DNA of 64,000 nucleotides from positions 14,644 through 78,643 of the forward strand of contig CAYUCL010000006.1 of assembly GCA_964443325.1 (NCBI GenBank), written 5' to 3'. Numbering within the stretch: position 1 is the first letter of the stretch; every line of letters starts with the position of its first letter. The translations under genes were made by a program, and so were the position numbers. The notes under the pieces were generated by a model. It saw only the letters and a program-made list of their open reading frames with translations. It ran no database searches and was not told where the DNA came from. The stretch is from an uncultured Dehalococcoidales bacterium (GTDB taxonomy: Bacteria; Chloroflexota; Dehalococcoidia; E44-bin15). This document shows, one piece after another, positions 18,421 through 63,915 of the stretch.

Positions 18421-18547
18421 TTTACACATATCACATATAATAGAGACGAGCCTGAGCGAACAGGTTGAAATGGCGGCGGCGGCCACGTACCGACCGGTGA
18501 GTTGGGAGGATACGTGTCCGTAATTATGTTTTTTGGTGGGACAAGAG

Positions 18548-20344: not shown

Positions 20345-20459
20345 TTGTCGAACCATGAACGGCCCTTCGGTGAACTCAGGACAGGCCCTTCGACAAGCTC
20401 AGGGCAAACGGACTAAACGCCACCCACTTTCCGGGTGTCTGGGGGTAGGCATATGTCAA

Positions 20460-26884: not shown

Positions 26885-27030
26885 ATTTTTCCTACCACTT
26901 ATGCCACAGCTTCCACTGTTGACCTGTCCTATTCGACTTCTTGATTGACAAGACTCAGGTGTTTCGAAGGCACAAATCAGGGATTTCCCGATTGTGCACT
27001 GAGCTATCATGTTGTAGTTTGGGCATATTA
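26885..27030 (+). repeat. URE copy G (extended 5' arm, two direct repeats, CCCGATTGTGCACTGAGCTATCATGTTGTAGTTTGGG box)
   Basis: Family member. It lies 85 nt upstream of 27116. Confidence 0.8.
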
Positions 27031-27580: not shown

Positions 27581-27965
27581 AGGGTGCCCACGGCCGTGTA
27601 GTCGCTTTTCGGACTGCCAAGATTCTTCGACTTCACAGTGAAGTGATAAAGGCGATGATCTAAATCAAGGGACCGCTGGACAAGAAGAGTTGAGAAGAGG
27701 AATGTGCCCTCGGTGCTAAGAAAGATACGAAACAGGAAAGCTGTTCTTGGCTTAGGTTTCTCCGTCGGTGAAGTAAGCCCGTGTTCCATCATCCATTAGC
27801 GCGATTACCGGTAAAGTTGCTACCGCTAGACCGGGCATCTTCTCAACCGGTTTTGTTTCTACCTTTTTCCTTGTAGCAATCCGGTAAAACATGAGGTGGT
27901 CTGTGTCAGAAGCTGGGGTATATCGATATAGAAGCAAAGATATCCAGAGAGAACGAGAGGTGGCC

Positions 27966-30029
27966 ATGTCTATCAACAAAGAGGGCCAGGAAAGCGCATC
28001 TTTCGGATATGCGGTAGAGCGTAGGCGGGCGAGAGAAGGGAGGAGGGTTACGGATGGTGCCATAGCCGCATCGATAAATGCTATTGCCATCGCTGACCTG
28101 GACGGCAATTTGACATATGTAAATAGGTCTTTTCTGCAAATGTGGGGATATGCTTCGGAGAAAGACGTTCTCGGAAGGCCTGCTGTAGAATTATGCCAGG
28201 CGGCAGATAAAGCTGGGGCGGTAGTGGCGGCACTATTCGAAAGAGGGGGCTGGCAAGGAGAGTTAGTCGCCTTAAGAAGGGATGACTCAACGTTTGATGT
28301 CCAGCTATCAGCAAGCATGATTACCGATGTGGCTGGCAAGCCAGTACGCATGGTGGCCTCACTTATCGACGTTACCGAGCGTAAGCAGGCAGAACGCATG
28401 CTTCGGGAAAAGAACGAGCAACTGGATGCTCAGAATGAAGAGCTTCACTTGCAGCGGGAAGAACTGGTAGGACAGCAAGAAGAGCTTAAAGAAAAAACGG
28501 CGCAACTAGAAGAGGCTAGCAAGCTGAAATCCGAGTTTTTGGCTAGAATGTCGCATGAACTCCGTACGCCACTTAATGCCATTATTGGCTTCTCTGAGTT
28601 AATGCTGGATGGTATCCCCGGTGGAGTCAATGATGAGCAGAAACAGTGCCTTGCCGACATATTAGATAGTGGTCGACACCTACTGAGCCTCATTAACGAC
28701 GTCCTGGACCTGTCTAAAGTAGAGGCGGGAAAGATGGAGTTCAGACTGGAAGACGTGGATATGGCTGACGTTATCGGTAGCGTAGTTCAAAGTGTCAGAC
28801 CCATGCTCCACGAAAGCAGACATAGGTTGACGGTAAGCATTCAAGAAGGGCTGCCACAAGTTCGCGCCGATGAAGGCAGATTAAGGCAGATATTTCTTAA
28901 TCTGCTGAGCAACGCTATCAAATTCACACCATCTGGTGGTAAGCTCGATATCCAGGCCAGTGGGGATGGCGATTGGTGCCAAGTTAGTGTGGTTGATAAT
29001 GGCATAGGCCTCAGGGAGGAGGATCAGACACGGATATTCGACGCTTTTATGCAGGCAGAGGCTGTACTTGAGGGAAGGAAAGAAGGTACTGGGTTGGGTC
29101 TAGCACTTACCAGGCAAATCGTCGAGACCATGGGCGGCACGATATGGGTAGAGAGCACATACGGGAAGGGGAGCAAATTCAGTTTTGCCCTTCCACTGGC
29201 AAGAGAGGGCGAGCCTTATATATTGGGGGAAGCACCGTTCGCAATTCCGGGGAAAAAACTCCCTGAGGCAAAGGAAATGCCTCTTAAGCCAGGACAGAAG
29301 CGAATCTTGGTAGTGGATGACGACCGCATGGCACGAAGTCTGTTAAGGGCTTGGCTGGAAAGAGAAGGCTATGCCGTCGTTGAAGTATCGAGCGGTGATG
29401 ATGGGATTGAGGAGGCCAATAAGCTGATGCCAGAAGCGGTTGTACTAGATATATTGATGCCTAGAAAGGATGGCTGGCAGGTGCTCCGGGAGCTTAAGTC
29501 AACGCCGAGGACAAGAGAAATCCCAGTGGTGATTACTTCAATTGTTGAAAGAAAAGGGTATGGTTTTAGCTTGGGAGCGGTGGACTACTTCGTCAAGCCT
29601 GTTGATAGGCAAGAGTTTCTGGAAAGGATAGCCGAGGTTGGTCTTCAGCCTCGAGAGAAAGTCTTGGTGATGGACGATAATCCTGCTGATGTTCGCCTGG
29701 TGGCTTCTATCCTTGAATCGGAAGGCATCGCGGTACTCCGTGCTTACGGGGGTGAGGAGGGACTGCGAGTAGCAAAGGAGGATAGGCCGGCACTAATACT
29801 GCTGGATATATTAATGCCTGACTTGAGCGGATTCGAAGTGATAGAGAAGTTACGTGCCGACGAAGAAACCAGAAATATCCCGATAATTGTGCTAACCGTA
29901 AAGGACTTGAGTGCTGAGGAATTAAAAGTACTCAGCAGACAGACAACGGCGATTATGAGGAAGGCAATCTTAAGACGCGGAGCCTTCTTATCGGAAGTGA
30001 AGAATGCTCTCGGGCTGGGTAAAAATTAG
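27966..30029 (+). CDS. Hybrid sensor histidine kinase: PAS-HisKA-HATPase_c-REC-REC
   Basis: H-box MSHELRTPLNAIIGFSELM. N/G boxes (LLSNAIKFT, DNGIGL, GTGLGLAL). Two receivers (RILVVDDD...VLDILMPRKDG; KVLVMDDN...LLDILMPDLSG). ATG at 27966 has GAGAGGTGG upstream; the ORF-track start 27891 is an extension. Confidence 0.85.
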   Translation: MSINKEGQESASFGYAVERRRAREGRRVTDGAIAASINAIAIADLDGNLTYVNRSFLQMWGYASEKDVLGRPAVELCQAADKAGAVVAALFERGGWQGELVALRRDDSTFDVQLSASMITDVAGKPVRMVASLIDVTERKQAERMLREKNEQLDAQNEELHLQREELVGQQEELKEKTAQLEEASKLKSEFLARMSHELRTPLNAIIGFSELMLDGIPGGVNDEQKQCLADILDSGRHLLSLINDVLDLSKVEAGKMEFRLEDVDMADVIGSVVQSVRPMLHESRHRLTVSIQEGLPQVRADEGRLRQIFLNLLSNAIKFTPSGGKLDIQASGDGDWCQVSVVDNGIGLREEDQTRIFDAFMQAEAVLEGRKEGTGLGLALTRQIVETMGGTIWVESTYGKGSKFSFALPLAREGEPYILGEAPFAIPGKKLPEAKEMPLKPGQKRILVVDDDRMARSLLRAWLEREGYAVVEVSSGDDGIEEANKLMPEAVVLDILMPRKDGWQVLRELKSTPRTREIPVVITSIVERKGYGFSLGAVDYFVKPVDRQEFLERIAEVGLQPREKVLVMDDNPADVRLVASILESEGIAVLRAYGGEEGLRVAKEDRPALILLDILMPDLSGFEVIEKLRADEETRNIPIIVLTVKDLSAEELKVLSRQTTAIMRKAILRRGAFLSEVKNALGLGKN

Positions 30030-30460: not shown

Positions 30461-31171
30461 GTGTCAATGGAGAAGACAATCCTTGTAGTGGACGACGACC
30501 CCGCCTTTGTCAGGCTAGTTAGCAAGGCTCTTACCCACGAAGGGTACGAGGTGCTCACTGCCGGTGATGGCCAGGAAGCCTTGCGGCTTCTGTTTGCACA
30601 CAAGCCAGGCTTGGTGCTTCTGGATGTTGTGATGCCAAGGATGGATGGCTGGCAAACCTGTAGCCGTATCCGCGAACTCTCTGACGCACCCATAATTATG
30701 CTTACCGGTGAGCAGAAGTCTGAGGAGGATGTGGTGCGCGGGCTCAACTACGGCGCTGATGAATACGTTATCAAACCCGTAGGGAATAAAGAGTTATTAG
30801 CAAGGGTGCGAACGGTGCTGAGACGCGCTGATTTGTCGACTTCACCGGGTACTGAGAAGGAGATTGCCTATAACGATGACTACCTTACTGTTGATGTCGC
30901 CAAGCGTATGGTTATGGTAAATGGAGAGCGAGTGAAGTTGACCCCAACGGAGTTTCGCTTATGTGCACTCCTGGTGGAGAATGCTGGACGCGTTCTCACT
31001 CACAAGCAAGTACTGGAAAAAGTGTGGGGCTGGGAATATGCTGATGATTTGGATTACGTACGTATCTATGTGTGGCACCTGCGCCAGAAGATAGAGCCAG
31101 ACCCGGCTCAGCCCAGATACATTATAACCGAACCTGGAGTGGGATATTACTTCCAGAAAGCTAAGTTGTGA
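30461..31171 (+). CDS. OmpR/PhoB-family response regulator (REC + winged-helix Trans_reg_C)
   Basis: ILVVDDDPAFV...LVLLDVVMPRMDG. The C-terminus LTPTEFRLCALLVENAGRVLTHKQVLEKVWGWEY...VRIYVWHLRQKIE is a typical OmpR wing. Confidence 0.85.
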   Translation: MSMEKTILVVDDDPAFVRLVSKALTHEGYEVLTAGDGQEALRLLFAHKPGLVLLDVVMPRMDGWQTCSRIRELSDAPIIMLTGEQKSEEDVVRGLNYGADEYVIKPVGNKELLARVRTVLRRADLSTSPGTEKEIAYNDDYLTVDVAKRMVMVNGERVKLTPTEFRLCALLVENAGRVLTHKQVLEKVWGWEYADDLDYVRIYVWHLRQKIEPDPAQPRYIITEPGVGYYFQKAKL

Positions 31172-32089: not shown

Positions 32090-32328
32090 GGTGCAGGGGC
32101 TGGCCTAGAGTACACAAGGCGACAACTCATAGCTAAAGGCCAGTCCCCAAAGGATACCACAGACGATCATAGCACGAGCGCTGAGACTAATGATACTTAT
32201 CGCCAGCACATCATGGACAGGTTTAACATTCTTGGCGTAGCCTATCTCCCCAAATATATCTTCTCAGAAGTATTGCTTTCCCTAGGAGACTAACCCCGCA
32301 TTAGTTTAGAACGCCGCATCCACCGTAG

Positions 32329-32450
32329 ACCTATCCTGTTCGCCTTCATAGATGATGCCCTCAGGTATTTCGAAGTCTAAACTCAGGGATTTCACCCCCG
32401 AACTCAGGGATTTCCCGATTGTAGGCTTGGCCATAAGCGTATAGTTTAGG
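32329..32450 (+). repeat. URE copy H (GACCTATCCTGTTCGCCTTC arm plus three TCAGG(G/T)ATTTC repeats at 22/21-bp spacing plus CCCGATTGTAGGCTTGGCCATAAGCGTATAGTTTAGGAGG)
   Basis: It ends 5 nt before ATG 32455, the first gene of the + arm of the glycan cluster. Confidence 0.8.
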
Positions 32451-32454
32451 AGGT

Positions 32455-33279
32455 ATGCGAGCAGTTAACTTGGACAAGACATGGCTTGATAGCGACGTGG
32501 GTAGCCTAATACTTTCTGATTCGACATCTCACTTCGTGAGCGTTATTGTTCCAGCAAAAAACGAGGCGAAAAACATCGGCAGTCTTATCCCAGAAATCAG
32601 ACAGAGTCTTTATGAATATGACAATGAGATAATCTTGGTTGACGATGGGTCGGATGATGGAACAAGTAAGGTCGCACATACCAATGATACAATTGTTGTT
32701 TCTCACGAAAAGAATCTAGGTAAGGGCGCTGCCATGAAGACCGGTGTGAAGAATGCCAGAGGTGATCTATTTGTATTCATTGATGCCGATGGCGCCCATG
32801 ACCCGTGGGACATACCAGCGATAATCGCACCAATCTTGGAAGGAAAAGCCGACCTCGTTATCGGTTCAAGGATTCTTCCAGACTCAAAAGTGGATGTTTC
32901 TCCCCTTTTTAGGAGGCTGAGTAATAGCTTGGCGTCCTTCGTTATTTCGTTTGTAATTTCGTTCTTGTTGCCCTTGGCGACTCTGCTCAAGTGCCCTGTA
33001 AAGTACATCAGGATAACCGACTGCACCAGCGGCTTCAGGGCAATCAGGAAAGATGTTTGGCAACAGCTTGATCTTAGATCGAGAGGATTCGAGGCAGAGA
33101 CTGAGATGATCTATGAGGCAGCGAGGAATAGGTTCGTTATATCTGAGGTTCCGATAACCTGTAACTGGGATAGCCAGTTTTCGCATCTCTCCATTTGGGG
33201 GGATGGTTTGAGAACTCTGGTATTACTTTTGAAGAAGCTCATTGGTGACCTTGGCAAAGGGCAGGGCAGACATGCTTGA
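32455..33279 (+). CDS. Family-2 glycosyltransferase (dolichyl/polyprenyl-phosphate sugar synthase-like)
   Basis: VSVIVPAKNEAKNI...ILVDDGSDDGT...FIDADGAHDP are GT2 DxD-type motifs. The C-terminal region is hydrophobic. Confidence 0.8.
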   Translation: MRAVNLDKTWLDSDVGSLILSDSTSHFVSVIVPAKNEAKNIGSLIPEIRQSLYEYDNEIILVDDGSDDGTSKVAHTNDTIVVSHEKNLGKGAAMKTGVKNARGDLFVFIDADGAHDPWDIPAIIAPILEGKADLVIGSRILPDSKVDVSPLFRRLSNSLASFVISFVISFLLPLATLLKCPVKYIRITDCTSGFRAIRKDVWQQLDLRSRGFEAETEMIYEAARNRFVISEVPITCNWDSQFSHLSIWGDGLRTLVLLLKKLIGDLGKGQGRHA

Positions 33280-33568
33280 GATTGAAGTTAGAGAGGTCAG
33301 GGGCAAGTGCCCTGTTTATGAGGTTGGGGACAAGATAGTGGTAGACGACCCCAGGATATTACTGGATAGGACGGATGAACTCTGCACACACGCACTATCA
33401 ACCTTGCTCCATTACGTTACCATATTGGAGCACCACTGGTGTCCAGTGGAACTTGGATTGACCACCCCCGATGAGCCCGGGCATGCCTACATGCAGTGTG
33501 TTGATCCTGGTAGGCCCTACACTGAAGGTGGAACAGTGCTCTTTGAATGCCGTAGGATAGAAAAGTGA
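33272..33568 (+). CDS. Small Cys/His-rich protein (TIGR04076-like?), overlapping the GT2 stop
   Basis: MLEIEVREVRGKCPVYEVGDKIVVDDP...CTHALSTLLHYVTILEHHWCP...MQCVDPG...VLFECRRIEK. The ATG at 33272 overlaps the upstream TGA at 33277-33279. Family assignment is from memory and uncertain. Confidence 0.4.
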   Translation: MLEIEVREVRGKCPVYEVGDKIVVDDPRILLDRTDELCTHALSTLLHYVTILEHHWCPVELGLTTPDEPGHAYMQCVDPGRPYTEGGTVLFECRRIEK

Positions 33569-34647
33569 AAGTAGCAGTAATCCTTGGAACTCGCCCCGAA
33601 ATAATCAAGATGGCACCTGTGGTAAAGGAACTAGAACGGAGACACGTTGACTTCTTCATCCTTCATACCGGTCAACACTACTTCTATGACTTGGACAAGG
33701 TTTTTTTTGAGCAGTTGAAGCTACCGCAGGCCAAATACAACCTGGAGGTGGGCTCCGGTTCTCATGCTGAGCAGACAGCAGGAGTACTTATTGGCGTTGA
33801 GAAGGTCTTGCAAAAGGAAAACCCCGACATCGTTTTGGTAGAGGGCGATACCAACTCTGTTCTTGCTGGTGCCCTTTCCGCAGCGAAGCTCCACCTGGAA
33901 GTTGGCCATGTCGAGGCAGGTTTACGAAGTTACGACAGAAACATGCCAGAGGAAATCAACCGCACTCTGACTGACCATTGCTCCGATTATTTGTTTGCAC
34001 CAACTGATAATGCGAAGGCAATTCTCCTGGGTGAGGGTATCTCTGAAAAGAAGGTTTTTGTCACTGGTAATACTATTGTCGATGCAATCTTCCAGAACTT
34101 AGAAATTGCTAAAGGACGAATGGAAACCCTGAGTAAATTAAGTCTTAGGTCCAAGGAGTATTGCCTAGTCACCGTTCATCGTCAGGAGAATGTGGATGAC
34201 CAGGTAAGATTCGCCTCCATTCTAGAGGGACTGGAGAAGGTGGTAGACGAGTTTCATCTACCGGCAATCTATCCTATGCACCCCCATTCTTTGAGGAGAA
34301 TGAATGAGTTTCACCTAGCGCTGCAGAACCTCACGCTTATCGACCCCATCGATTTTCTGGGATTTACCCAGCTTGAGAGCAATGCAAAGCTTATCCTTAC
34401 CGACTCAGGGGGTGTACAGGAGGAAGCCTGCATCCTTGGCGTGCCTTGTGTCACCTTAAGGGACAATACCGAAAGATCTGAAACGGTCGAGGTTGGCGCC
34501 AACATGGTGGCTGGGACTTCGGCGGTTAAAATACTCGAATGTACCAGGGTGATGCTGACAGAGGGAAAGGGTTGGCAGAACCCCTTTGGTGATGGGAAAG
34601 CCGCCGAAAGGATAGTTAGCATAATTATGGAAGGAAGTGATGGCTAA
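33565..34647 (+). CDS. wecB: UDP-N-acetylglucosamine 2-epimerase (non-hydrolysing)
   Basis: MKVAVILGTRPEIIKMAPVV...HTGQHY...LVEGDTNSVLAGALSAAKLHLEVGHVEAGLRS...DSGGVQEEA. 360 aa. Canonical WecB/MnaA motifs. Confidence 0.88.
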   Translation: MKVAVILGTRPEIIKMAPVVKELERRHVDFFILHTGQHYFYDLDKVFFEQLKLPQAKYNLEVGSGSHAEQTAGVLIGVEKVLQKENPDIVLVEGDTNSVLAGALSAAKLHLEVGHVEAGLRSYDRNMPEEINRTLTDHCSDYLFAPTDNAKAILLGEGISEKKVFVTGNTIVDAIFQNLEIAKGRMETLSKLSLRSKEYCLVTVHRQENVDDQVRFASILEGLEKVVDEFHLPAIYPMHPHSLRRMNEFHLALQNLTLIDPIDFLGFTQLESNAKLILTDSGGVQEEACILGVPCVTLRDNTERSETVEVGANMVAGTSAVKILECTRVMLTEGKGWQNPFGDGKAAERIVSIIMEGSDG

Positions 34648-35563
34648 GATACTGGTTACCGGCGGGCTGGGCTTTATCGGCTCGAACCTTGTGCCTGAAC
34701 TGAAGAAGCGTGGTCATGATGTCTGGGTGTGTGACCTGGGGCAGTCAGAAAGCCCTAATTACATACGCTGCGACGTTACCAAATACCGCCAGCTTGAGAA
34801 GATATTTGAGGAGGATGACCTCGACTACGTCTATCACCTTGCCGCGGAATATGGCCGCTGGAACGGCGAGGACTACTATGAAAACCTGTGGCTCACCAAC
34901 GTGGTAGGTACGAAGCACATGCTCCGGCTTCAGGAAAAGAAAAGGTTCAGGCTGATATTCTTCAGCAGTGCCGAGGTCTATGGTGACTACGAGGGGGTGA
35001 TGAGCGAGGATGTAATGGATCGGATACCAATCAAGCAGATGAACGACTATGCCATGACCAAGTGGGTAGGGGAGCTGCAGGTGCTGAATTCGCAGGCCAT
35101 GTTCGGCACTGAGACGGTGAGGGTGCGGCCGGTGAACGCCTACGGGCCGCATGAGCACTACAGCCCTTATCGGGGGGTGATTCCTGCGTTTATCTATAAG
35201 GCGTTAAACAATGAGTCCTACACTGTATATCTGGGGCACAATCGCATCTTCGACTACGTTGAGGATACCTGTCGCACCTTTGCTAACATCGCCGACAACT
35301 TCAAGCCTGGCGAGGTGTACAACACTGGCGGCAAAGAGGAATGGGAGCACGAGATAAAGTACGTTTCCGACCTCATCCTCAGGAATCTGGGCAAAGACGA
35401 TTCAAGGATCACGTACAAGGAAGCTGAGCCCTTTACTACGAAGGTCAAGCACATGGACTTCTCCAAGGCGAGGAGAGACCTGAACCATGACCCTAAGGTC
35501 CCTTTGGAAGAGGGAATACCAAGGACTATTGAGTGGATGAAGAAGGTGTATTGCAGCAAATGA
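34637..35563 (+). CDS. NAD-dependent epimerase/dehydratase (extended SDR)
   Basis: ILVTGGLGFIGSNLV Rossmann motif and a Y-x3-K catalytic motif. 308 aa. Confidence 0.75.
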   Translation: MMAKILVTGGLGFIGSNLVPELKKRGHDVWVCDLGQSESPNYIRCDVTKYRQLEKIFEEDDLDYVYHLAAEYGRWNGEDYYENLWLTNVVGTKHMLRLQEKKRFRLIFFSSAEVYGDYEGVMSEDVMDRIPIKQMNDYAMTKWVGELQVLNSQAMFGTETVRVRPVNAYGPHEHYSPYRGVIPAFIYKALNNESYTVYLGHNRIFDYVEDTCRTFANIADNFKPGEVYNTGGKEEWEHEIKYVSDLILRNLGKDDSRITYKEAEPFTTKVKHMDFSKARRDLNHDPKVPLEEGIPRTIEWMKKVYCSK

Positions 35564-36783
35564 GAATCCTAATCACTCAAGAGACCGATTGGCTTAAACG
35601 AAACCCTGCACAGCAGCATCATCTGGCAGAGATGCTGTCGCTAAGGGGTCACGAAATACGCGTTATCGATTACGAGTTTCTATGGAGAATAGAAGCTAGA
35701 AAAAGGCTATATTCGATGCGGGGAATCTTTGAAAATGTGTCCAAGATTCACCAAGGTGCAAATATCACTTTAATTCGCCCTGGTATTGTCAAGATACTCC
35801 CTTGGTTGGATTATGTTTCTCTGATATTTTCCCACAGAAGAGAAATCAAGCGCCAGATAAAGGAATTCTCTCCCGATGTGATTATTGGCCTGGGCATCCT
35901 GAATAGTTATCTGTCTGCAATGGCGACGAAAAATAGTAATATACCCTTCATTTATTATTGGATAGATGTATTGCACTTGCTCATACCATCTAAGCCATTG
36001 CGTTTTCTAGGAAAGCTTGTAGAGAGGGCGGTTCTGAAAAGGGCTGATCGAGTTCTGGTAATAAATGAAGAGCTCAAAGACTATGTAGTGGCATTGGGGG
36101 CTTTGCCTGAGCGATCTCAGGTATTGAGAGCTGGCATCGATATCGGGCGATTTAACCCCAATAGTGATGGCGATGCTATTAGAAAAGAATATGGGTATAG
36201 TGAACAAGATGTGATCCTCTTCTTCATGGGCTGGCTTTACAGCTTTTCTGGCTTAAAAGAAGTCTGCTCACAACTGGCGCAGATCGAGAACCATAACCTC
36301 AAGCTATTTATCGTTGGTGATGGCGATGCCTACAACGAACTCTGTGCAATACGGGACAGGCAAGGCCTGCAAGACAGGCTTATTCTGGCCGGCAAGAAGG
36401 CCTATCAGGAGATCCCCGCCTTCATAAGTGCATCCGACATTTGTCTTTTGCCAGCCTATCCTGCGGAGAAGATAATGCAGCACATTGTCCCCATAAAGAT
36501 GTACGAGTATATGGCGATGAGAAAGCCAGTGATCGCAACCAAGCTCCCTGGATTAATCAAAGAGTTCGGCGAGGATAACGGGATAGTCTATGTGGATAGA
36601 CCAGAGGATGTTGTCGAAAAGGCTATCGAACTGATTGATAGTGCTAGCGTAGAGGTACTAGGTACAAAGGCGAGGAGCTTCGCTGAGAAGTACGATTGGG
36701 ACAGAATCACCGATCAATTTGAGCGAATCTTGGAAGAAGCTACTAAGGAGAAGGCAGGAACAAATGAAACAATACATAGATAA
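35533..36783 (+). CDS. Family-4 glycosyltransferase (GT-B)
   Basis: C-terminal Glycos_transf_1 region (LKLFIVGDGDAY...LLPAYPAEKIMQHIVPIKMYEYMAMRKPVIATKLPG). Confidence 0.75.
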   Translation: MDEEGVLQQMRILITQETDWLKRNPAQQHHLAEMLSLRGHEIRVIDYEFLWRIEARKRLYSMRGIFENVSKIHQGANITLIRPGIVKILPWLDYVSLIFSHRREIKRQIKEFSPDVIIGLGILNSYLSAMATKNSNIPFIYYWIDVLHLLIPSKPLRFLGKLVERAVLKRADRVLVINEELKDYVVALGALPERSQVLRAGIDIGRFNPNSDGDAIRKEYGYSEQDVILFFMGWLYSFSGLKEVCSQLAQIENHNLKLFIVGDGDAYNELCAIRDRQGLQDRLILAGKKAYQEIPAFISASDICLLPAYPAEKIMQHIVPIKMYEYMAMRKPVIATKLPGLIKEFGEDNGIVYVDRPEDVVEKAIELIDSASVEVLGTKARSFAEKYDWDRITDQFERILEEATKEKAGTNETIHR

Positions 36784-37762
36784 GTACAAGGGCAAGAACA
36801 TCCTCATTACCGGAGGGGCGGGATGCATCGGCAGCAATCTCACCAAAGCCTTAATCAAGGCGGAGGCTGCCAGTATCATTGTCCTTGATGACCTGTCTGC
36901 CGCTGAGAGGTGGAATGTCCCCGATGACCCCAACGTGGTCTTCATCCAAGGGAGCGTCTGCGACGACGAAGTCTTGAAGCGAGCGTTTTCAAACAGGCTC
37001 GACTTTGTCTTCCATCTGGCGGCGCACTTCGCCAACCAGAATTCGGTGGACAATCCGGAGACCGACCTTAAAGTCAATGGACTTGGCACACTCAAGATGC
37101 TGGAGTACTCCCACCTGGCGGGCGTCGGCAGGCTTGTCTTTGCCTCCTCTGGCTGCTCGGTCTATGGCAGCCAGGCACCCCTGCCGCTGAAGGAGGACTT
37201 CGTTTCCGTTCACCTGGATACCCCCTATCAAATCACCAAGCTCCTGGGAGAACTATATTGTAATTTCTTTCATGACTACTACGGCTTGCCAATAGCCATA
37301 GCGCGCTACTTCAACGTCTATGGCCCTGGAGAAATACCCGGTGCCTATCGCAACGTAATTCCCAATTTCATCTGGTGGGGGCTTCATGGCCAACCTCTGA
37401 CAATCACCGGTACCGGTGAAGAGACCAGGGACTTCACCTTTGTGGATGACATCGTTGACGGCACTCTGCGATTGGGCGTTATGCCTGAAGCACTAGGGCA
37501 AGCCTTCAACCTTGCTTCCGAAATTGAGACCAAGGTCATCGATATTGCCACCACGGTGAATGAACTGACCGGCAACGACGGAGCAGTGCAGTACGTCGGC
37601 AGAAGGGATTGGGACAAGATCACAAGGAGAAGAGCCTCTATTGAAAGAGCAAGGGGAGTATTGGGTTACGAACCCAAGACGCAATTGAAGGACGGGGTCA
37701 AGAAAGCCTATGAATGGATAGCTGGGAATCGCGAGAGAATAGAGGAAAGCACAAGGTTCTAG
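36764..37762 (+). CDS. NAD-dependent epimerase/dehydratase (extended SDR; UDP-glucuronate decarboxylase / 4,6-dehydratase-like)
   Basis: ILITGGAGCIGSNL, YQITKLLGE (Y-x3-K), ARYFNVYGP. ATG at 36764; the ORF-track start at 36719 overlaps the previous gene. Confidence 0.75.
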   Translation: MKQYIDKYKGKNILITGGAGCIGSNLTKALIKAEAASIIVLDDLSAAERWNVPDDPNVVFIQGSVCDDEVLKRAFSNRLDFVFHLAAHFANQNSVDNPETDLKVNGLGTLKMLEYSHLAGVGRLVFASSGCSVYGSQAPLPLKEDFVSVHLDTPYQITKLLGELYCNFFHDYYGLPIAIARYFNVYGPGEIPGAYRNVIPNFIWWGLHGQPLTITGTGEETRDFTFVDDIVDGTLRLGVMPEALGQAFNLASEIETKVIDIATTVNELTGNDGAVQYVGRRDWDKITRRRASIERARGVLGYEPKTQLKDGVKKAYEWIAGNRERIEESTRF

Positions 37763-37778
37763 AATAGCAGAAGATGCT

Positions 37779-38744
37779 GTGAAAAGAGGCCATATGAATC
37801 ACAATTACGTCGTGGCTGAACCACTAATAGAGACATTCAGAGGCAGCAATATCGATCTAAGCAATCTGCCAAGAGTTTCGTTCTGCATACCCACCAGGAA
37901 CAGGGAAAGGAGTCTCAGATATTGCCTCCAGAGCATCGTTACACAGGATTACCCCGATATTGAAACCGTGGTGGTAGACAATGGGTCCACCGATGCGTCT
38001 GTGGAGGTAGCAAGGGAGTTCACCGACAACGTCTTCACTTGCGATGGGCCGCTGGGTAAGGTGCGGCAATTCTCGATCGAGAGGAGCAGTGGTGCAATTC
38101 TTGCGCTGCTGGATGATGATGTTACACTTCCGCACCAGAAATGGCTGATCAATGCCATCAGATATTTCAACTACAGTGACCGCGTCAGCACCGTGTGGCC
38201 TCGAAACGTAGCTCCTCCCAGCGCATCGCGCTTCACCAGGCTGTATCTCAATTTCTGGAAGGTCACTATGGAGGACCGCGTTGCCAAAGGACGGGGTCTT
38301 TGCGGTGGTGGCAACGCGTTGTTCCTGAGGAAAGCAATCAAGGAAATCGGAGGTATCAACACCTCGCTACACTGGGGAGAGGACTACGACTGGGCGGGAA
38401 AGCTCAGAGATAGAGGATACCAGGTGGTGTACATCAAGGACCCTATCTGGCATGACACCATGATGTCTCTCCGAGAGTTCACCCGAAAGCAGTTCACCGG
38501 CGCAGCCACATTCACCACGTCGCAGGGCTTCCGTCTGGTGCAACTGTCGCTCCGTGACGTATTCTACGAACAGGTCATACTGGGCACAAAGGGAATGATA
38601 CTCGGGCTCCTCAGGGAGAGGGACATGTCGTGGTTTCTCTACCCCGCGTTCGTAGGTGCTAGAACTCTGGCGTTTGGATATACCTATATTTCTTGCCACG
38701 CAAGGCAATTATTGAACGACAGAAGATTCAGGATATCTGGATAG
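37779..38744 (+). CDS. Family-2 glycosyltransferase
   Basis: VSFCIPTRNRERSLRYCLQSIVTQDYPDIETVVVDNGSTDAS...LDDDVT. Confidence 0.75.
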   Translation: MKRGHMNHNYVVAEPLIETFRGSNIDLSNLPRVSFCIPTRNRERSLRYCLQSIVTQDYPDIETVVVDNGSTDASVEVAREFTDNVFTCDGPLGKVRQFSIERSSGAILALLDDDVTLPHQKWLINAIRYFNYSDRVSTVWPRNVAPPSASRFTRLYLNFWKVTMEDRVAKGRGLCGGGNALFLRKAIKEIGGINTSLHWGEDYDWAGKLRDRGYQVVYIKDPIWHDTMMSLREFTRKQFTGAATFTTSQGFRLVQLSLRDVFYEQVILGTKGMILGLLRERDMSWFLYPAFVGARTLAFGYTYISCHARQLLNDRRFRISG

Positions 38745-38828
38745 AATGATAGATCGTAAACCAGACTGTACTACACCAAGGTATGAAAATATCGTTTTGC
38801 CAAGCAACAAAGAAGAGGAGAGTAAGCG

Positions 38829-39755
38829 ATGCTAAAGACACTGATGACAAAGTTGATTTATCGGGCTCATACATCACGATATTTTCCTTTTAGAAATGGA
38901 GTGACCCAAGTAGTCCTCATACTGTTCTACAGAGGATTGAAATTGATTAGAAAAAAAATGACCTTCATAACTACAGTCGGCGAAATAACGTATGAAGTGG
39001 ACCTTCACGAAAAAATGGATTTTCAGTTGTACTTTTTGGGTATTTATGAGCAAGAGGTCACTTGGGCTACCGATTTGTTGTGTCGAGAAGGCATGACTGT
39101 CCTGGATATTGGGGCAAATGCCGGATTTCACACATTTCGTTTTGCCAGATTGGTGGGTTCAGAAGGAAAAGTAATAGCATTTGAACCAATGGCAAACGCT
39201 TTTGCAAGACTTAACAGAAACATGGTACTGAATAGTTACAACAATATCATCCTTGAAAAGCTAGCAATCTCAAATGAGAGCAAGCGCAATCAAGTCGTTG
39301 ATTTTAGAACAAGTTGGCTGCTGGATCAACCTAGCTTTCCTCAGGCTGACAATGTTGCCCGAGAAAAGGATGTCGTTGATTTCATTACTTTGGACGAGTA
39401 CCTGAGGGAAAAGCAATATAACAAGGTTGATCTCATTAAGATTGATGTTGATGGCTATGAGCTTAAAGTTATTCAAGGTGCAATTGAAACACTGAAATTA
39501 CACAAGCCTTTCCTCCTGCTCGAAATCGGACCAAAATCCATGGAGACAGTAGAGGACAAAGCAACGGATCTGGTATCTCAACTTTCAGATTTAGGCTATG
39601 AATTCTATTGGTATTCTCCTTCGAAACGTAAGATTAAGAAATATCCAAGCTTAGATTACTTCATAGAGTCAATACTCTATGAAGGAGAATCAACTAACTA
39701 TGTTTTGAGTGTAAAGGATTTGTCGGCAGTGCATGAAAGCAAGTGCATTAGTTGA
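38829..39755 (+). CDS. FkbM-family SAM-dependent methyltransferase
   Basis: TVLDIGANAGFHTFRFARLVGSEGKVIAFEP...VDLIKIDVDGYELKVIQGA is the FkbM signature. Roughly 40% GC. Confidence 0.75.
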   Translation: MLKTLMTKLIYRAHTSRYFPFRNGVTQVVLILFYRGLKLIRKKMTFITTVGEITYEVDLHEKMDFQLYFLGIYEQEVTWATDLLCREGMTVLDIGANAGFHTFRFARLVGSEGKVIAFEPMANAFARLNRNMVLNSYNNIILEKLAISNESKRNQVVDFRTSWLLDQPSFPQADNVAREKDVVDFITLDEYLREKQYNKVDLIKIDVDGYELKVIQGAIETLKLHKPFLLLEIGPKSMETVEDKATDLVSQLSDLGYEFYWYSPSKRKIKKYPSLDYFIESILYEGESTNYVLSVKDLSAVHESKCIS

Positions 39756-39873
39756 GAAAAATATTAGCGTGAACTATGTGAGTAGTATTACGATTTGTGT
39801 TGCGAAATTTTATTTATCCGGCAACAGCTAGTTTGATTGTAGCGGAGAAGTGCAAATCAGAGGTCGAAAACCA

Positions 39874-41049
39874 ATGAAAATCCTTCAGGTGATATCTTCT
39901 TTCCCGCCGGCATATGCATATGGTGGTCCTCTCAAGATGGCTTACGGTATTTCGAAGGAGCTGGCAAGAAGAGGGCATGAAGTCACTGTTTATACGACCG
40001 ATGTCTACGATGCCCAGTGCCGCTTCAAACAAATCCAAAATCCGAGCTATATGGACGGTGTAAAGGTTCACCGCTTTAGAAATGTTAATAACAAGCTTGC
40101 CCATGGAAACCTTGCTATCGCTCCAATGATGGCACGCGCATTAGACAGGAACATCGCCAATTTCGATATAGCTCACGTGCATGAAACTCGTACCTTTCAG
40201 GCGATGATTGTACGCCACTATGCGAACAAACACGGCATTCCTTACGTATTACAGGCTCGCGGCTCTCTTCCTAGGATAATGGCCAAACGGAGACTGAAGA
40301 TGGTGCTTGACGTTGTGTGGGGCTACAAGTTGCTAAGGGATGCTGCAAAGGTGATTGCTCTCACAGAAGCCGAAGCTCAGCAATACAGAAGCATGGATTT
40401 AACCAAGGACAGAATTGAGATCGTTCCCAATGGAATCGACCTCTCGGAATTTAATGCTTTGCCGCAAAAGGGCGAATTCAGAAGGAAATATGGCATCGGT
40501 GATGACCAAAAGCTACTTCTTTATCTGGCTAGGATCCATAAGATAAAGGGGCCAGACCTCCTAGCGAAAGCATTTGCTGGACTTCGGGGAGAAATTGGAG
40601 ATGCCAAGCTGGTGGTAGTCGGCCCAGACGATGGATATCTGTCAACGCTAAGACGACTGATAAAGGAACTGGGCATTGAACAAAGGGTCATGTTCACTGG
40701 TCCACTCTATGGACAAGATAAGCTATCAGCCTATGTTGATGCTGATGTATATATCTTGCCCTCATTCTACGAGGTTTTTGGTAATACAGCACTTGAAGCA
40801 TGTGCCTGTGGCACACCAGTGATGGTAACCGACCGTTGTGGTGTAGCAGACTTTGTCGGAAGGGTTGGATGCGTCGTGGGATATGACGAAGACCAGTTGC
40901 GAGATGGGCTCTTGAGAATGTTGTGCAATGGGATTTCAAGGAGGAGGTTGGGGGACGAAACTAAGCGGCTGGTGGGGGAAGAGTTTGGGTGGGACGTGAT
41001 TGCAGGGAAACTGGAGGATCTTTATGAGCGTATTCAGAATAGAGGATAA
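39874..41049 (+). CDS. Family-4 glycosyltransferase
   Basis: MKILQVISSFPPAYAYGGP N-terminus and C-terminal EVFGNTALEACACGTPVMVTDRCG. The ORF-track start 39850 is an extension. Confidence 0.8.
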   Translation: MKILQVISSFPPAYAYGGPLKMAYGISKELARRGHEVTVYTTDVYDAQCRFKQIQNPSYMDGVKVHRFRNVNNKLAHGNLAIAPMMARALDRNIANFDIAHVHETRTFQAMIVRHYANKHGIPYVLQARGSLPRIMAKRRLKMVLDVVWGYKLLRDAAKVIALTEAEAQQYRSMDLTKDRIEIVPNGIDLSEFNALPQKGEFRRKYGIGDDQKLLLYLARIHKIKGPDLLAKAFAGLRGEIGDAKLVVVGPDDGYLSTLRRLIKELGIEQRVMFTGPLYGQDKLSAYVDADVYILPSFYEVFGNTALEACACGTPVMVTDRCGVADFVGRVGCVVGYDEDQLRDGLLRMLCNGISRRRLGDETKRLVGEEFGWDVIAGKLEDLYERIQNRG

Positions 41050-41076
41050 CTACTGTCAGGGATATGGAATGGCGAG

Positions 41077-42963
41077 ATGAGTGGTATATGCGGCATAGTG
41101 CAAAGGGAACATGATATCCTACCCCAGAATCTGGAGCCTATGGTTAAGGCCATGGAGCATCGTGGTCCAGACGGTGCTGGCACAAGGTACTTTCCGGGAG
41201 TGGGTTTAGGCAATACTAGACTTGCCGTTATTGATCTCACCTCCGCTGGCAATCAACCAATGACCAATGAGGACGGCACTGTTTGGATTACTTATGATGG
41301 TGAAATTTATAACTATGGCGAACTCCGGGACAAGCTAATCAGCAAGGGGCACAGATTCAGCTCTGCAACCGATACCGAGGTCATCATTCACTTGTATGAG
41401 GAATACGGCAAGGATTGCCTTGGCTATCTGCGGGGAATGTTTGCTTTTGCTATCTGGGATGAGAGAAACAAGAGTCTTTTTCTAGCAAGAGATAGACTGG
41501 GTGTCAAGCCTCTGTACTATGTATATTATGGAGACAGGCTTATCTTTGCTTCAGAGATTAAGGCTATCCTCTCTGCCAAGCTTTTACCTAAGAAACTCAA
41601 TACCCAAGCAGTATTGGCCTATTTCTTGTTTGGCTCAATCCCGCCTCCACTTACCATCTTCGAAGGCGTAAACGTTCTCCCCCCAGGGCACCATATGGAG
41701 CTTCAAAATGGGCGTATGAATCCCCAAAGCTACTGGGAGCTTTCTTTCCAACCAAAAGAGAATATTGGGAAGGAGCAAGCCACCACCGAGCTCAGATCGC
41801 TACTGGAACAGGCTATGAATTCTCATATTATGAGTGATGCTCCATTAGGTGCCTTTATCAGCGGTGGTATTGACTCTTCAATTATAGTCGCAATTGTGAG
41901 TAGGCTGATTAGCAGTCCTCTAAGGACTTTCAGCATCACCTTTCCTGAAATATCCTTCAGCGAGTCTCATTTTGCTAGGCTCGTGGCTGCGAGGTTTGAA
42001 ACTAATCATACCGAATACGAGGTTACCAGCGACAATGTCAAGGACCAACTTACCGCCATAATCCGCGCTATGGACCAGCCAACGGTAGACGGGGTCAATA
42101 CCTACTTCGTTTCCAAAGCCGCCAGGGAGGCTGGAATCGTAGTAGCCCTATCTGGGCTTGGAGGTGATGAGCTCTTTCATGGCTACTCAAGCTTCACGGC
42201 GATTCCCAGGATGCACCGAAGACTGACCCCGTTGCGATATATGCCTGTCAGCATGCGGAAGCCGTTCTGCTGGCCCCTTTCCCGGGGTGCCCTTGGAGGA
42301 CATGGTAAGAAGTTAGCTTATCTGATATCTAGCGCTCTCTCCATAGAAGACATCTACTTCGCGTGGAGGTCTTGCTTTGTGGATAGTGATCTAGCTTGCC
42401 TGATTAACCCAGATGTCTGGCGTCAGGAGGACCTATCTGTGGGATCAGAGTATGTAAAAAGCATGGGTAGGAGGTGTAATGCTCGTGATCCTGTGGACAG
42501 AATATCCTTCTTGGAATTGATGACATATATGAGTAATCAGTTACTTTGGGATACCGATGTGATGAGCATGGCACATTCCCTAGAAGTGAGGACTCCTTAC
42601 TTGGACGATGTTCTGGTGGAATTCGCCTCCAAATTGCCCGCCAACCTTAGGAAGGCTGAGGGACGGCCAAAAGGACTGTTGCTAGAGTCAGTAGATGGTC
42701 TTCTGCCTCCGGAGGTCGTTGAGCGAAAGAAAATGGGGTTTGAGTTCCCATTTTATCTATGGCTTAGGGAAGGTCTAAGACCTTTAGTGTCAGAGGTTTT
42801 GTCTCCAAAGAACATTGAACAGCTCGGTCTACTTCAACCCAGAGCGGTTAGTTCCTTATGGCAGAATTTTCTCCATAGTAAGAAAGGTATTGGATGGTCA
42901 AGAGTTTGGGCAATACTTATCTTTCAGCTCTGGTGCAATGAGGTGCTAAGATCTCAGTCTTAG
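41077..42963 (+). CDS. Asparagine-synthetase-family glutamine amidotransferase (AsnB/WbpS-like)
   Basis: N-terminal ...ICGIVQ GATase-II domain with Cys at position 5 (MSGICGI). SGGIDSS PP-loop. About 628 aa. It sits inside the glycan cluster. Confidence 0.8.
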   Translation: MSGICGIVQREHDILPQNLEPMVKAMEHRGPDGAGTRYFPGVGLGNTRLAVIDLTSAGNQPMTNEDGTVWITYDGEIYNYGELRDKLISKGHRFSSATDTEVIIHLYEEYGKDCLGYLRGMFAFAIWDERNKSLFLARDRLGVKPLYYVYYGDRLIFASEIKAILSAKLLPKKLNTQAVLAYFLFGSIPPPLTIFEGVNVLPPGHHMELQNGRMNPQSYWELSFQPKENIGKEQATTELRSLLEQAMNSHIMSDAPLGAFISGGIDSSIIVAIVSRLISSPLRTFSITFPEISFSESHFARLVAARFETNHTEYEVTSDNVKDQLTAIIRAMDQPTVDGVNTYFVSKAAREAGIVVALSGLGGDELFHGYSSFTAIPRMHRRLTPLRYMPVSMRKPFCWPLSRGALGGHGKKLAYLISSALSIEDIYFAWRSCFVDSDLACLINPDVWRQEDLSVGSEYVKSMGRRCNARDPVDRISFLELMTYMSNQLLWDTDVMSMAHSLEVRTPYLDDVLVEFASKLPANLRKAEGRPKGLLLESVDGLLPPEVVERKKMGFEFPFYLWLREGLRPLVSEVLSPKNIEQLGLLQPRAVSSLWQNFLHSKKGIGWSRVWAILIFQLWCNEVLRSQS

Positions 42964-54110: not shown

Positions 54111-55016
54111 CTATTGCCTGTTAACCTTTGAACTTTGGCATAGAAGTGGAGTGCACCCCCATGGTTGGACAGGTAGGGTTAGTCCTTCCCAGGAAGGATG
54201 GCGGAGTAGCACGGTCTCTGGCTGAACAAGCAGAGACTCTTCAAACTCATTCGGTGGGCGATAACCCAGAGCCGAATGAAGCCTCTTCCGATTATAGACC
54301 TCCTCAATGAAGTAAGGAAGTCTTTCCAGTACATCTTTTAAAGTCTCATATTCACACAGGTAAACCTCCTCGTACTTAAGAGTCTTGAAAAAGCTCTCTA
54401 TCACGGCATTCTCATAGGGGTTACCCGCCCGGGCCATGCTGATTTGAAACCCATGCCCCCTGAGCTCGGCCGTGTACTCATCTGAGGCATACTGCACTCC
54501 CTGGTCAGAGTGATGAATGACCCCTATGCCAGGCTGTCTTTCACCTATCGCCATGCGCAATGCCCTCAGTGCCAACGCTGTATCCAAGCTGGTAGAGATT
54601 GCATACCCGATAACCCGCCTAGAAAAGGCATCCAGAATGGCTGCCAGGTAGACAAAGCCAGTCCGGATACGGATGTAAGTGATGTCGGGCAACCATACCT
54701 GACTCAGCCGGCTGACAGTCACCCCTTTGATAAGATTGGGATACCTGGGGAAGCGATGTCGGCTATCAGTGGTTTTCACCCACTTACGCCTCACCCGGCA
54801 CAGCAGATCACTTTCCCTCATTAACCGCAGTACCTTCTTGTGATTCACTACCCATCCCTCTCGCTGCAGTTGTTTGGTAACCCTGCGACATCCGTATCGG
54901 GGAAACTCAAGGCAAATAGCTTCAATACGGTCCACCAGGTCAGCCTCTGCTTCCATCCGGTCGGGGCTTTTGGTTTTGGGTTTGTAGTAGAAACTGCTCC
55001 TTGCAAGGTTCATCAA
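54111..55016 (-). CDS. IS3 transposase OrfB (DDE integrase core, rve)
   Basis: 301 aa. D...D...E region (VWLPDITYIRI...HHSDQGVQYAS...ENAVIESFFKTLKYE) typical of the IS3 rve domain. Expressed as an OrfAB fusion by -1 frameshift. Confidence 0.8.
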   Translation of the reverse strand: MMNLARSSFYYKPKTKSPDRMEAEADLVDRIEAICLEFPRYGCRRVTKQLQREGWVVNHKKVLRLMRESDLLCRVRRKWVKTTDSRHRFPRYPNLIKGVTVSRLSQVWLPDITYIRIRTGFVYLAAILDAFSRRVIGYAISTSLDTALALRALRMAIGERQPGIGVIHHSDQGVQYASDEYTAELRGHGFQISMARAGNPYENAVIESFFKTLKYEEVYLCEYETLKDVLERLPYFIEEVYNRKRLHSALGYRPPNEFEESLLVQPETVLLRHPSWEGLTLPVQPWGCTPLLCQSSKVNRQ

Positions 55017-55454
55017 TCGACACCCCCGCCGGATATTGCTGACGAGGCATCCCCACCGTGCAATGACTTCGCGTTTCTTCTCGACTGGCTGAGGCTGTTC
55101 TGTAACCCCTTTTTTAGGAATTCGTTCTCCAGGGTCAGCCTACCCACCAATCGCTCCAATTGCTCGATCCTGTCCCTAAGACCACCTTCTTCAGTGGGCT
55201 CATTATCAAACTTGCCCCGGCTATATTGCTTCCTCCAGTGGTGAATTAAGCTTGATTGGATATTGTATCTACGGCAGATCTGAGCAGGGCGACTTTCGCC
55301 ACTGAGCAACTCCTCGACTATCTGGCGCTTAAACTCTACACTGAAACTCCTCTGGTTCCTCATGGCAAGATCCTTTCTATCCCTTATTATAACGTTACTC
55401 CGACCCTGCCAAACAGTCCTAACCCAAAGTGTCCAGTTTCAGGGGTTCACTCCA
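54147..55454 (-). mobile_element. IS3-family insertion sequence (1308 bp) with terminal inverted repeats and a 3-bp target-site duplication AAG
   Basis: IRL TGGAGTGCACCCCCATGGTTGGACAGGTAGGGTTAG matches IRR (reverse complement) TGGAGTGAACCCCTGAAACTGGACACTTTGGGTTAG, with TG...CA termini. AAG flanks both ends (54144-54146 and 55455-55457). OrfA and orfB have an A-AAA-AAG slippery site. Confidence 0.8.
55013..55363 (-). CDS. IS3 transposase OrfA (HTH)
   Basis: 116 aa. RRYNIQSSLIHHWRKQY HTH. It contains the CTA-AAA-AAG-GGG slippery heptamer (+ strand 55110-55120), after which the -1 frame stays open into orfB. Confidence 0.8.
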   Translation of the reverse strand: MRNQRSFSVEFKRQIVEELLSGESRPAQICRRYNIQSSLIHHWRKQYSRGKFDNEPTEEGGLRDRIEQLERLVGRLTLENEFLKKGLQNSLSQSRRNAKSLHGGDASSAISGGGVD

Positions 55455-63109: not shown

Positions 63110-63365
63110 GACTCCCCCTAAAGATTTGGGTACCTCGAATTTCCAACAATTAAGTGCGTTTATTCCCGATGTGGCAGGTCATTTGTCTGGAGTTTTAACC
63201 CCGCCGGCGTAGCTATCACAACTCGACGGTAACACCAAAGCCACGTGACTTTGCCCTATGAGAATATGCGAATTTTGCCTTTCTGGAGCAGGATGTTACA
63301 TCTCTAGCTCTACTTGCCCGACTCAGTTGCTCACGTGCCTAAACTACTGCGTAATGGAGCGCCGC

Positions 63366-63410
63366 GCAATCGGGAAATACCTGAGTTAGGGCTTCGAAAT
63401 ACCTGAGTTG
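63366..63410 (-). repeat. URE copy J in reverse orientation (reverse complement reads CTCAGGTATTTCGAAGCCCTAACTCAGGTATTTCCCGATTGCGCGGCGCTCCATTACGCAGTAGTTTAGG)
   Basis: It is the only copy on the - strand. It lies about 230-260 bp upstream, in the - sense, of the first - strand glycan gene, whose start is at 63109. Confidence 0.75.
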
Positions 63411-63799
63411 GTCATGGAGGAATGCGGATGTAGGAAGTGGTTGGCTCCCTGAACCTTCTCCGGTGTGTGGTTGCCGTTAAGGCCTCATACGTCAGCATGT
63501 TAGTGTGGCTTTAAAAAGCCATATGTCGGTTCCTGGGGGTATTCCTTAATGAGACGAGTTAGTGATTTACGCACGCAGATTAGTAATGCTTTGCTATGAC
63601 GTTGCTTCGGATAGAAGCGGATTCTTTCCTGTTTCTTCCACGCTTTCTCTTCGTGTTACAGCTCTATCTGGGCCGATTCGTGCCCATTGCATATGAGGTG
63701 AAACAATCCCAGGTAATTTGATACTCAAAGTGTAGCCCTAGCTAACCAATCATATCATCCAGGAAGGATGGGATTACCCAGAAGACAAACTCCGTCTCT

Positions 63800-63915
63800 G
63801 CTATCAACATATCCTGTTTGTGTTCTTTGGAGATAAACTCAGGTTTTTCGAAGACCAAACTCAGGGATTTCCTGATTGTGCGCTGAGCCAATTACCGGGA
63901 TTATGGGATGCAAAG
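63800..63915 (+). repeat. URE copy K (two direct repeats plus CTGATTGTGCGCTGAGCCAATTACCGGGATTATGGGATG box)
   Basis: Oriented towards a + strand gene beyond the window end. It is divergent from copy J. Confidence 0.7.

Follow-up and report, generated by a model that had tools for sequence, protein, structure and literature searches.

The window, i.e., the whole stretch of 64,000 nucleotides analysed here from an uncultured Dehalococcoidales bacterium, carries a series of two-component and c-di-GMP signalling genes and two glycan clusters that converge on each other. Gene content was read from Pfam matches and from the gene table of the overlapping contig L001. The segment at 63366-63410, in front of the minus-strand glycan cluster, is the reverse complement of a two-box core, CAACTCAGGTATTTCGAAGCCCTAACTCAGGTATTTCCCGATTGC, and 11 copies of the element that contains it were found in the window, with repeat finding, a 12-mer search and a PWM scan in agreement (Table 1). 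The 12-mer CTCAGGKATTTC, taken with up to two mismatches, matched the window 39 times compared with 10.6 times in shuffled sequence. The PWM scan returned exactly the 11 copies together with reverse echoes of the palindromic box, and it found no copy within the genes of the window or within the glycan arms.

Nine copies lie on the plus strand and two on the minus strand. All 11 are intergenic and are oriented in the same direction as the next gene (p ~0.0005 under random orientation). The first-pass annotation had taken copy J for the only minus-strand copy; this does not hold, as a second one, Cm, was found, and it diverges from copy C in the same manner as J from K. The other positional claims are borne out by the coordinates. 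Copy H stands just before the ATG of the GT2 gene at 32455, its -10 hexamer ending 7-8 nt upstream. Copy J is inverted and lies upstream of the dehydrogenase start at 63109, with its predicted start site (~63334) at ~225 nt and its distal box at ~300 nt. Copy K is situated beyond J at a distance of 431 nt, faces outward, and forms a divergent pair with it.

Table 1. Copies of the element in the window with the genes that follow them, and the candidate cognate regulator and kinase. The distal box begins at the first coordinate of a plus-strand copy and at the second coordinate of a minus-strand copy.
Feature	Coordinates	Strand	Boxes	-35	-10	Genes downstream, or description
Copy A	1540-1628	+	3	TTGTGT (1600)	TAGTTT (1623-1628)	probable gene remnant 1981-2121; REC-PAS-HisKA_3 kinase 2272-3840; REC-GerE regulator 3740-4495
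Copy B	4961-5048	+	3	TTGTGC	TAGTGT	kinase 5111-6061; REC-PAS-GAF-GGDEF-HD-GYP 6091-8970; PGM/PMM 8976-10340; GlmU-like 10316-11656
Copy Cm	14511-14577	-	2	TTGCAC	TATCAT	small two-helix membrane-protein ORF within 14210-14470
Copy C	14865-14931	+	2		TAGTTT	PAS-HD-GYP 15171-16253; KaiB-like 16295-16603
Copy D	17100-17187	+	3		TAATGT	conserved ~420-nt leader; orphan REC-GerE regulator 17616-18269
Copy E	18336-18423	+	3		TATTTT	PAS-HD-GYP 18533-19630
Copy F	20497-20584	+	3		TAGTGT	1764-aa multi-PAS-GAF-GGDEF-HD-GYP protein 20892-26186
Copy G	26954-27020	+	2		TAGTTT	unknown 27116-27580; hybrid kinase 27891-30029; REC 30063; OmpR-type regulator 30461-31171; YdjM 31475
Copy H	32360-32447	+	3		TAGTTT (32442-32447)	glycan arm: GT2 32455-33279 first; UDP-GlcNAc 2-epimerase, epimerases, GT4s, FkbM methyltransferase, asparagine synthase, deacetylase, Wzx-like flippase
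Copy J	63341-63407	-	2	TTGCGC	TAGTTT (63346-63341)	glycan arm: UDP-sugar dehydrogenase 63109-61802, GFO oxidoreductase, ATP-grasp, DegT, GT4s
Copy K	63838-63904	+	2		GATTAT	DUF1616 gene (GTG 63979, runs past the window); Rce1-like gene
Candidate cognate regulator	17616-18269	+				NarL/FixJ-type: REC and GerE helix-turn-helix; paralogues 267-968 and 3740-4495
Candidate cognate kinase	2272-3840	+				REC-PAS-HisKA_3-HATPase, directly upstream of regulator 3740-4495

In the alignment, a copy consists of two or three boxes phased by 21-22 bp, namely, a distal box TCAGGTnTTTCGAAG that is invariant, a middle box that may be missing, and a proximal box TCAGGgATTTCCYGATTG. The start-to-start spacing is always 22 bp or 22 + 21 bp (22 bp from the distal box to the next one, 21 bp from the middle box to the proximal one), and hence all boxes of a copy face the same side of the helix. 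The proximal box forms an imperfect palindrome, ATCAGG-N5-CCYGAT, whose half-sites are centred 10 bp from each other; its symmetry is confirmed by the reverse-strand echoes of the PWM. The distal box, TTTCGAAG, has no clear palindrome and lacks the right half-site.

The final T of the proximal box is at the same time the first T of a weak -35 element, TTGnnn. Both the alignment and a coordinate script show that in all 11 copies this element is followed after exactly 17 nt by the -10-like hexamer TAnnnT, replaced by GATTAT in copy K. With the -10 hexamer set at -12 to -7, the box centres fall at approximately -43, -64/-65, and -86. The predicted start sites of copies A to K, in the order of Table 1, are at 1635, 5055, 14504, 14938, 17194, 18430, 20591, 27027, 32454/5, 63334, and 63911. 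Read from the sequence, such an arrangement is that of an activator-dependent (class II) promoter of the sigma-70 type. A generic promoter scan, in which at least 9 of 12 consensus matches were needed, did not flag the copies, because both their -35 and -10 elements are weak; this fits activator dependence but is not proof of it. Two other promoter classes were considered and rejected: a sigma-54 reading of the upstream block TGGCGTTCTTGC, in which inspection gave a GG-GC offset of 9 nt, not 12, and an ECF-type promoter, for which the AAC/CGT signature is absent. Rfam at gathering thresholds gave no match in the whole window.

Several further features surround the copies. A block of ~40 nt, CCACTGTTGACCTGTCCTATTGGCGTTCTTGCGTGACA, immediately precedes the distal box of five copies, C, D, F, G, and H (14819-14862, 17054-17097, 20451-20494, 26907-26950, and 32314-32357), and also that of the loci L019 and L022, with weaker versions at 18290-18333 and 63796-63837. 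Copies A, B, Cm, and J lack this block, which was seen in Dehalococcoidia copies only and might represent a second site. Copy F is preceded at a short distance by six to seven tandem repeats of a 21-nt unit, ACCGTTCGTGGTGAACTGTAC (20203-20366). GC-rich REP-like hairpins occupy intergenic gaps at 1154-1208, 4541-4572, 4680-4746, 12089-12119, 16642-16901, 20375-20411, and 26385-26740, some of them between a regulator gene and the next copy of the element.

Operons encoding GGDEF or HD-GYP proteins are headed by four copies (B, C, E, and F), and two-component operons by three more (A, D, and G). The earlier statement on five GGDEF/HD-GYP/PAS sensor genes behind the element is refined accordingly. 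The operon behind copy B is compact: the PGM/PMM gene begins 6 nt after the GGDEF-HD-GYP gene and is overlapped by the GlmU-like gene, and a GlmS gene (12168-13940) possibly also belongs to it. In the operon of copy C, the KaiB-like gene comes immediately after the PAS-HD-GYP gene; the corresponding position behind copy E (19714-20046) gave no Pfam match. Downstream of copy A, the 46-aa ORF at 1981-2121 resembles the N-terminus of a PAS-HD-GYP protein and is probably the remnant of a gene. A paralogue of the membrane-protein gene of copy Cm (~67% nucleotide identity) is situated at L001:527-784, ~1.6-1.9 kb past the end of the window and beyond the Rce1-like gene; the 500 nt available upstream of this paralogue contain no motif.

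The leaders that follow copies A and D (1650-1900 and 17215-17465) have ~250 nt in common, also present at L008:270-520 and L022:845-1095. They contain a strong hairpin, GGGTCCGATCCG...CGGATCGGACCC, with several compensatory pairs and no Rfam match, as well as an ORF of 80-90 aa with the shared sequence WRPxFxxGPI. Hence, this stretch could be either a structured leader or the gene of a small protein.

Both arms are glycan clusters with genes for GT2 and GT4 glycosyltransferases, epimerases, a Wzx-like flippase, a UDP-sugar dehydrogenase, and DegT. No copy of the element is present in the four internal gaps (180-290 nt) of the plus-strand arm, so that only the first unit (32455-42963) is directly covered by copy H. 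The predicted +1 of this copy (~32454/5) falls on the ATG of the GT2 gene; AGGAGG is located 1 nt before the ATG, and the Pfam domain begins at residue 29. Possibly, the mRNA has no leader; alternatively, the gene may actually begin farther downstream. An IS3-type transposase (rve plus HTH_21; 54111-55363, minus strand) and an ORF upstream of it lie where the two arms converge. The genes behind copy K were read from contig L001, which is 100% identical to the end of the window.

Elsewhere, 32 loci were matched by a 27-nt pattern (21 fixed bases) in a scan that covered a single genome of each species, compared with ~0.3 expected by chance according to our own calculation. The conserved module comprises 45 bp with the -10 element at 17 nt, reads aaaTCAGGtTTTTCGAAGcccAAAATCAGGgaTTCCCCGATTG in other phyla, and is found in MAGs whose names refer to at least seven phyla. 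The source names include Syntrophales, Desulfobacterales, other Desulfobacterota, Planctomycetes, Dehalococcoidia, Anaerolineae, Nitrospirota, Verrucomicrobiota, Aminicenantes, Latescibacterota, "Proteobacteria", and a Sedimenticola sp., whose match has no proximal box and may be due to chance. The motif is also carried by the genomes OY970063.1 and OZ244937.1. Three loci (L008, L019, and L022) come from the Dehalococcoidia MAG CSMAG_854; this MAG is 88-93% identical to parts of the window, which assigns the window to the same lineage.

In 64 instances from outside this lineage, the sole conserved signal past the box is TATa.t, placed 17 nt after TTGnnn, and the histogram of spacer lengths peaks at 17 (22/64). 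No conservation past the -10 element was seen in these instances, which argues that the conserved unit is a promoter/operator acting at the DNA level and not a transcript. Copies elsewhere are mostly intergenic (86%, compared with 26% for random positions): only 9 of 65 fall within open frames that are 200 codons or longer, compared with 74% of random positions. The claim that an element whose orientation tracks the next gene behaves as a promoter or operator is thereby supported on several counts, namely, the co-orientation of 11/11 copies, the TTGnnn-17 nt--10 arrangement with phased boxes in front of it, the spacing conserved across phyla, the mostly intergenic location, and the synteny with a regulator gene described below.

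The candidate cognate regulator is suggested by gene order. All three NarL/FixJ-type regulator genes of the window are followed on the same strand by a copy of the element (267-968 by A, 3740-4495 by B, and 17616-18269 by E); copy E starts 67 nt past the stop codon of 17616-18269. A tblastn search with the latter regulator against the motif loci identified orthologues with 54-95% identity in 11/32 of them, and most of these orthologues end just upstream of the motif. The regulator family proved to be large and uniform in a wider search, in which at least 8000 candidates were scored, all with E <= 1e-30; the best 120 of these are proteins with 65-95% identity, and nearly all are ~217 aa long. 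The canonical acceptor residues (Asp55, Lys105) are kept in the family, and the recognition helix is invariant. The orthologues carry only generic names in their sources, and the regulator scores below every NCBIfam equivalog cut-off, including that of NarL, the best being MctR (213 bits vs. 300), with UvrY at 180 vs. 280.

The association was also assessed in the reverse direction, in 80 metagenome loci picked by regulator homology alone, 71 of which had enough downstream sequence. The unrefined PWM, built from the genome loci only, gave 25 matches compared with none in shuffles; 19 of the 25 are located 0-250 nt past the stop codon of the regulator gene on the same strand. The refined PWM gave 54 matches compared with 0.5 in shuffles, and 30/71 loci were positive within 0-300 nt past the stop codon; this PWM was trained on loci in which it was then counted, a circularity that the unrefined scan avoids. 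The median offset of the motif from the stop codon is ~60 nt. A recognisable motif stands just downstream in only ~40% of the regulator loci, and thus either the pairing is not universal or the motif has diverged past detection by the PWM.

The gene upstream of the regulator encodes a kinase in 57/64 cases, with HisKA_3 in 46 and commonly with a PAS domain. The kinase 2272-3840 of the window belongs to the same family as those that precede regulator orthologues elsewhere. The synteny of kinase, regulator, and motif points to a conserved unit formed by a PAS-HisKA_3 kinase, a NarL-type regulator, a promoter with the motif, and a target gene. Outside the window, the gene that most often follows the motif encodes a further paralogue of the regulator (9/60). 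This observation, together with the position of copies A and D in front of regulator genes, points to autoregulation.

In a few loci, the recognition helix and the operator differ together. Regulators with E-x-N-R, i.e., with N for H in the recognition helix (L050, L055, L079, L081, and L103), are accompanied by operators whose right half-site is CCTAC, CCTGC, or CCTGG and not CCCGAT. The operator variants may therefore track the variants of the recognition helix (E-x-N-R vs. E-T-H-R), as would be expected from protein-DNA covariation, and these examples are anecdotal. In several metagenome loci, the kinase-regulator pair is followed by amtB, which was Pfam-confirmed for two and recognised from the N-terminal sequence in the others; the motif lies in between in L069, L090, and L093, and none was found at threshold in L084 and L092. 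In these lineages, the system may govern nitrogen uptake.

Based on these observations, we propose that each copy is probably a self-contained, activator-dependent promoter of the sigma-70 type that is switched by the NarL/FixJ-type regulator. Whereas the architecture, its conservation, and the gene order around the regulator are observed, we infer regulator binding, activation rather than repression, and the signal. A cytoplasmic PAS-HisKA_3 kinase would partner the regulator, which in its phosphorylated form would bind the boxes cooperatively as dimers and, from approximately -43, recruit RNA polymerase to the weak promoter in the fashion of LuxR-type class II activators. The circuit would also feed back on itself, as copies A and D precede regulator genes. 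Its predicted targets are four c-di-GMP turnover operons, one of which also contains genes for UDP-sugar precursors, a further two-component operon, the gene of a small membrane protein, both glycan arms, and the DUF1616/Rce1-like pair.

A promoter with operator boxes might also be served by a different protein, such as the OmpR-type regulator 30461-31171, a factor encoded elsewhere, or a second factor at the distal box TTTCGAAG, the NarL-type regulator being merely a frequent target and neighbour. The regulator genes are situated downstream of copies and hence are certainly targets, the distal box is devoid of the right half-site of the palindrome, and ~60% of the regulator loci show no detectable motif just downstream, all of which would agree with another binder. 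We nevertheless consider it unlikely, since no other DNA-binding gene recurs beside the motif across phyla, whereas the regulator does so in both searches (11/32 and 30/71), with a tight offset. Dimers of the GerE type bind palindromes with a 10-bp spacing, whereas OmpR-type regulators bind direct repeats, and the 10-bp half-site palindrome observed here suits the former better. The parallel variation of operators and recognition helices likewise speaks for the NarL-type regulator.

The same regulator could instead bind the same boxes as a repressor of an otherwise constitutive promoter by occupying the box over the -35 element. The overlap of the proximal box with the -35 element would allow this, and many copies outside the lineage have a near-consensus -10 (TATAAT, TATATT) that might work unaided. 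However, only the TTG of the -35 element is retained, and the -10 hexamers of the window are weak (TAGTTT). Helically phased upstream boxes are typical of cooperative activators at LuxR-type and DevR-type promoters, and the boxes at approximately -64 and -86 conform to this type; the layouts at copies A and D are those of positive autoregulation. Repression is therefore quite improbable in our estimation, and activation by the NarL-type regulator remains the preferred reading.

That the element represents a selfish or mobile sequence of the MITE or REP type, or else a structured RNA, that has spread through intergenic regions with no regulatory role is very improbable and has already been largely refuted: despite the many copies in 64 kb, the true REP-like hairpins that are also present in the window, and the extra block of ~40 nt shared upstream by some copies, the orientation of the 11 copies is far from random, their aligned flanks show no terminal inverted repeats or target duplications, Rfam gives no match, conservation across phyla ends at the -10 element, and the position relative to the regulator gene is fixed in unrelated phyla.

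With an activator-dependent promoter as the preferred reading, the distribution of the copies suggests that, most likely, the c-di-GMP enzymes, the signalling genes, and both surface-sugar clusters are under one switch. Three glycan-related units are headed by copies, and in the operon of copy B, a GGDEF-HD-GYP gene is combined with PGM/PMM and GlmU-like genes. The co-regulation of glycan and c-di-GMP genes put forward in the first-pass annotation can thus be soundly inferred from the shared element. What the element indicates is a common upstream regulator and not control of glycan synthesis by c-di-GMP.

Outside this lineage, c-di-GMP-I riboswitches follow the motif in three loci of Desulfobacterota (L009, L011, and L021, the last two of which look homologous). 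They begin 77-95 nt past the start of the motif, i.e., 10-25 nt past the predicted +1, and no other riboswitch was detected in the 213 kb scanned. Thus, they begin where the transcript of the promoter would start, which is indirect support for the predicted start site. In 20 further regulator loci, no c-di-GMP riboswitch was found, only a c-di-AMP riboswitch and a tRNA, neither of them beside the motif. The genes behind the motif in other phyla represent 68 families, and neither GGDEF nor HD-GYP is among the 25 most frequent of these. GGDEF/HD-GYP proteins are hence not a dominant target class elsewhere, and the link to c-di-GMP appears to be lineage-specific. Targets in other phyla are of the envelope type, e.g., AmtB, TerC, BON, LolA-like, MMPL, amidase, MlaE, and OAD-beta.

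More tentatively, the kinase, the regulator, and the 45-bp operator-promoter ~60 nt past the stop codon might together form an ancient, horizontally spreading "plug-in" cassette able to control any gene that happens to lie downstream, and in the lineage studied here the promoter would have been multiplied into a master switch joining c-di-GMP turnover to surface-glycan synthesis. We regard this broader scenario as doubtful; it would explain why proteins with 55-68% identity are accompanied by near-identical operators across phyla and why the downstream genes are very heterogeneous.

The reconstruction provides a concrete predicted regulon for an uncultured member of Dehalococcoidia, a group in which, to our knowledge, both regulation and c-di-GMP biology have been little studied. 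It singles out a response-regulator family that has thousands of close orthologues in phyla of anaerobic sediments and has so far been labelled only generically. The pairing of this family with a predicted operator makes its targets predictable in any MAG by a simple motif scan. The sequence also provides evidence of a common input to c-di-GMP enzymes and to UDP-sugar and glycan genes, two classes that are physically linked in one operon, and the same promoter precedes c-di-GMP riboswitches in Desulfobacterota. The kinase-regulator-operator system is conserved over an unusually wide range of phyla. A shallow literature search found no description of the motif or of the regulator family. The kind of element is familiar, and this particular kinase-regulator-operator system seems to be undescribed.

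The closest parallel in promoter architecture is provided by class II activation by LuxR and TraR, in which a GerE-type dimer binds a palindrome of ~20 bp at approximately -42.5, overlapping a weak -35 element, and recruits RNA polymerase. As at the lux and tra boxes, the palindrome of the element is located near -43 and is fused to TTGnnn. In contrast to these systems, the protein is a phospho-accepting response regulator and not an autoinducer receptor, one or two extra phased boxes are present upstream, and the sequence of the box is unrelated.

The promoters of DevR/DosR in Mycobacterium tuberculosis have tandem phased boxes, the proximal one over the -35 element, and show cooperative activation as well as autoregulation. 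DevR itself is recognisable as a structural relative of the regulator (PDB 3c3w, E 4.8e-28). The element shares with these promoters a NarL-family regulator, tandem phased boxes, and a proximal box overlapping the -35 element, and cooperativity and autoregulation are proposed here as well. On the other hand, the DevR box is of the type GGGACN4-6GTCCC, whereas that of the element is TCAGG-N5-CCYGA; the kinases of DevR sense via GAF domains, whereas the kinases considered here would do so via PAS; and none of the named NCBIfam families includes the regulator as an equivalog.

Some orthologues of the regulator carry the KEGG-style label "NreC", and the system indeed resembles the oxygen-sensing NreBC of Staphylococcus in combining a cytoplasmic PAS-HisKA_3 kinase with a NarL-type regulator that has a similar recognition helix (SVKTVE-H-). 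The NreC site, a short G/C palindrome TAGGGN4CCCTA, resembles operator variants such as TTAGGATTTCCCTAA in L040. A sensor of the NreB type, with an Fe-S cluster, was rejected for the kinase 2272-3840, as its PAS region (residues ~177-291) contains no cysteine and the four-cysteine site is absent; no nitrate or nitrite genes are found among the targets.

Finally, the association of a REC-GerE regulator with c-di-GMP genes and exopolysaccharide loci is reminiscent of biofilm regulators of the VpsT/CsgD type. Binding of c-di-GMP as in VpsT was rejected, since the three regulators of the window contain no tryptophan and hence no W[F/L/M][T/S]R motif. With this motif absent and the acceptor residues Asp55 and Lys105 kept, the regulator looks to be driven by phosphorylation and not by c-di-GMP.
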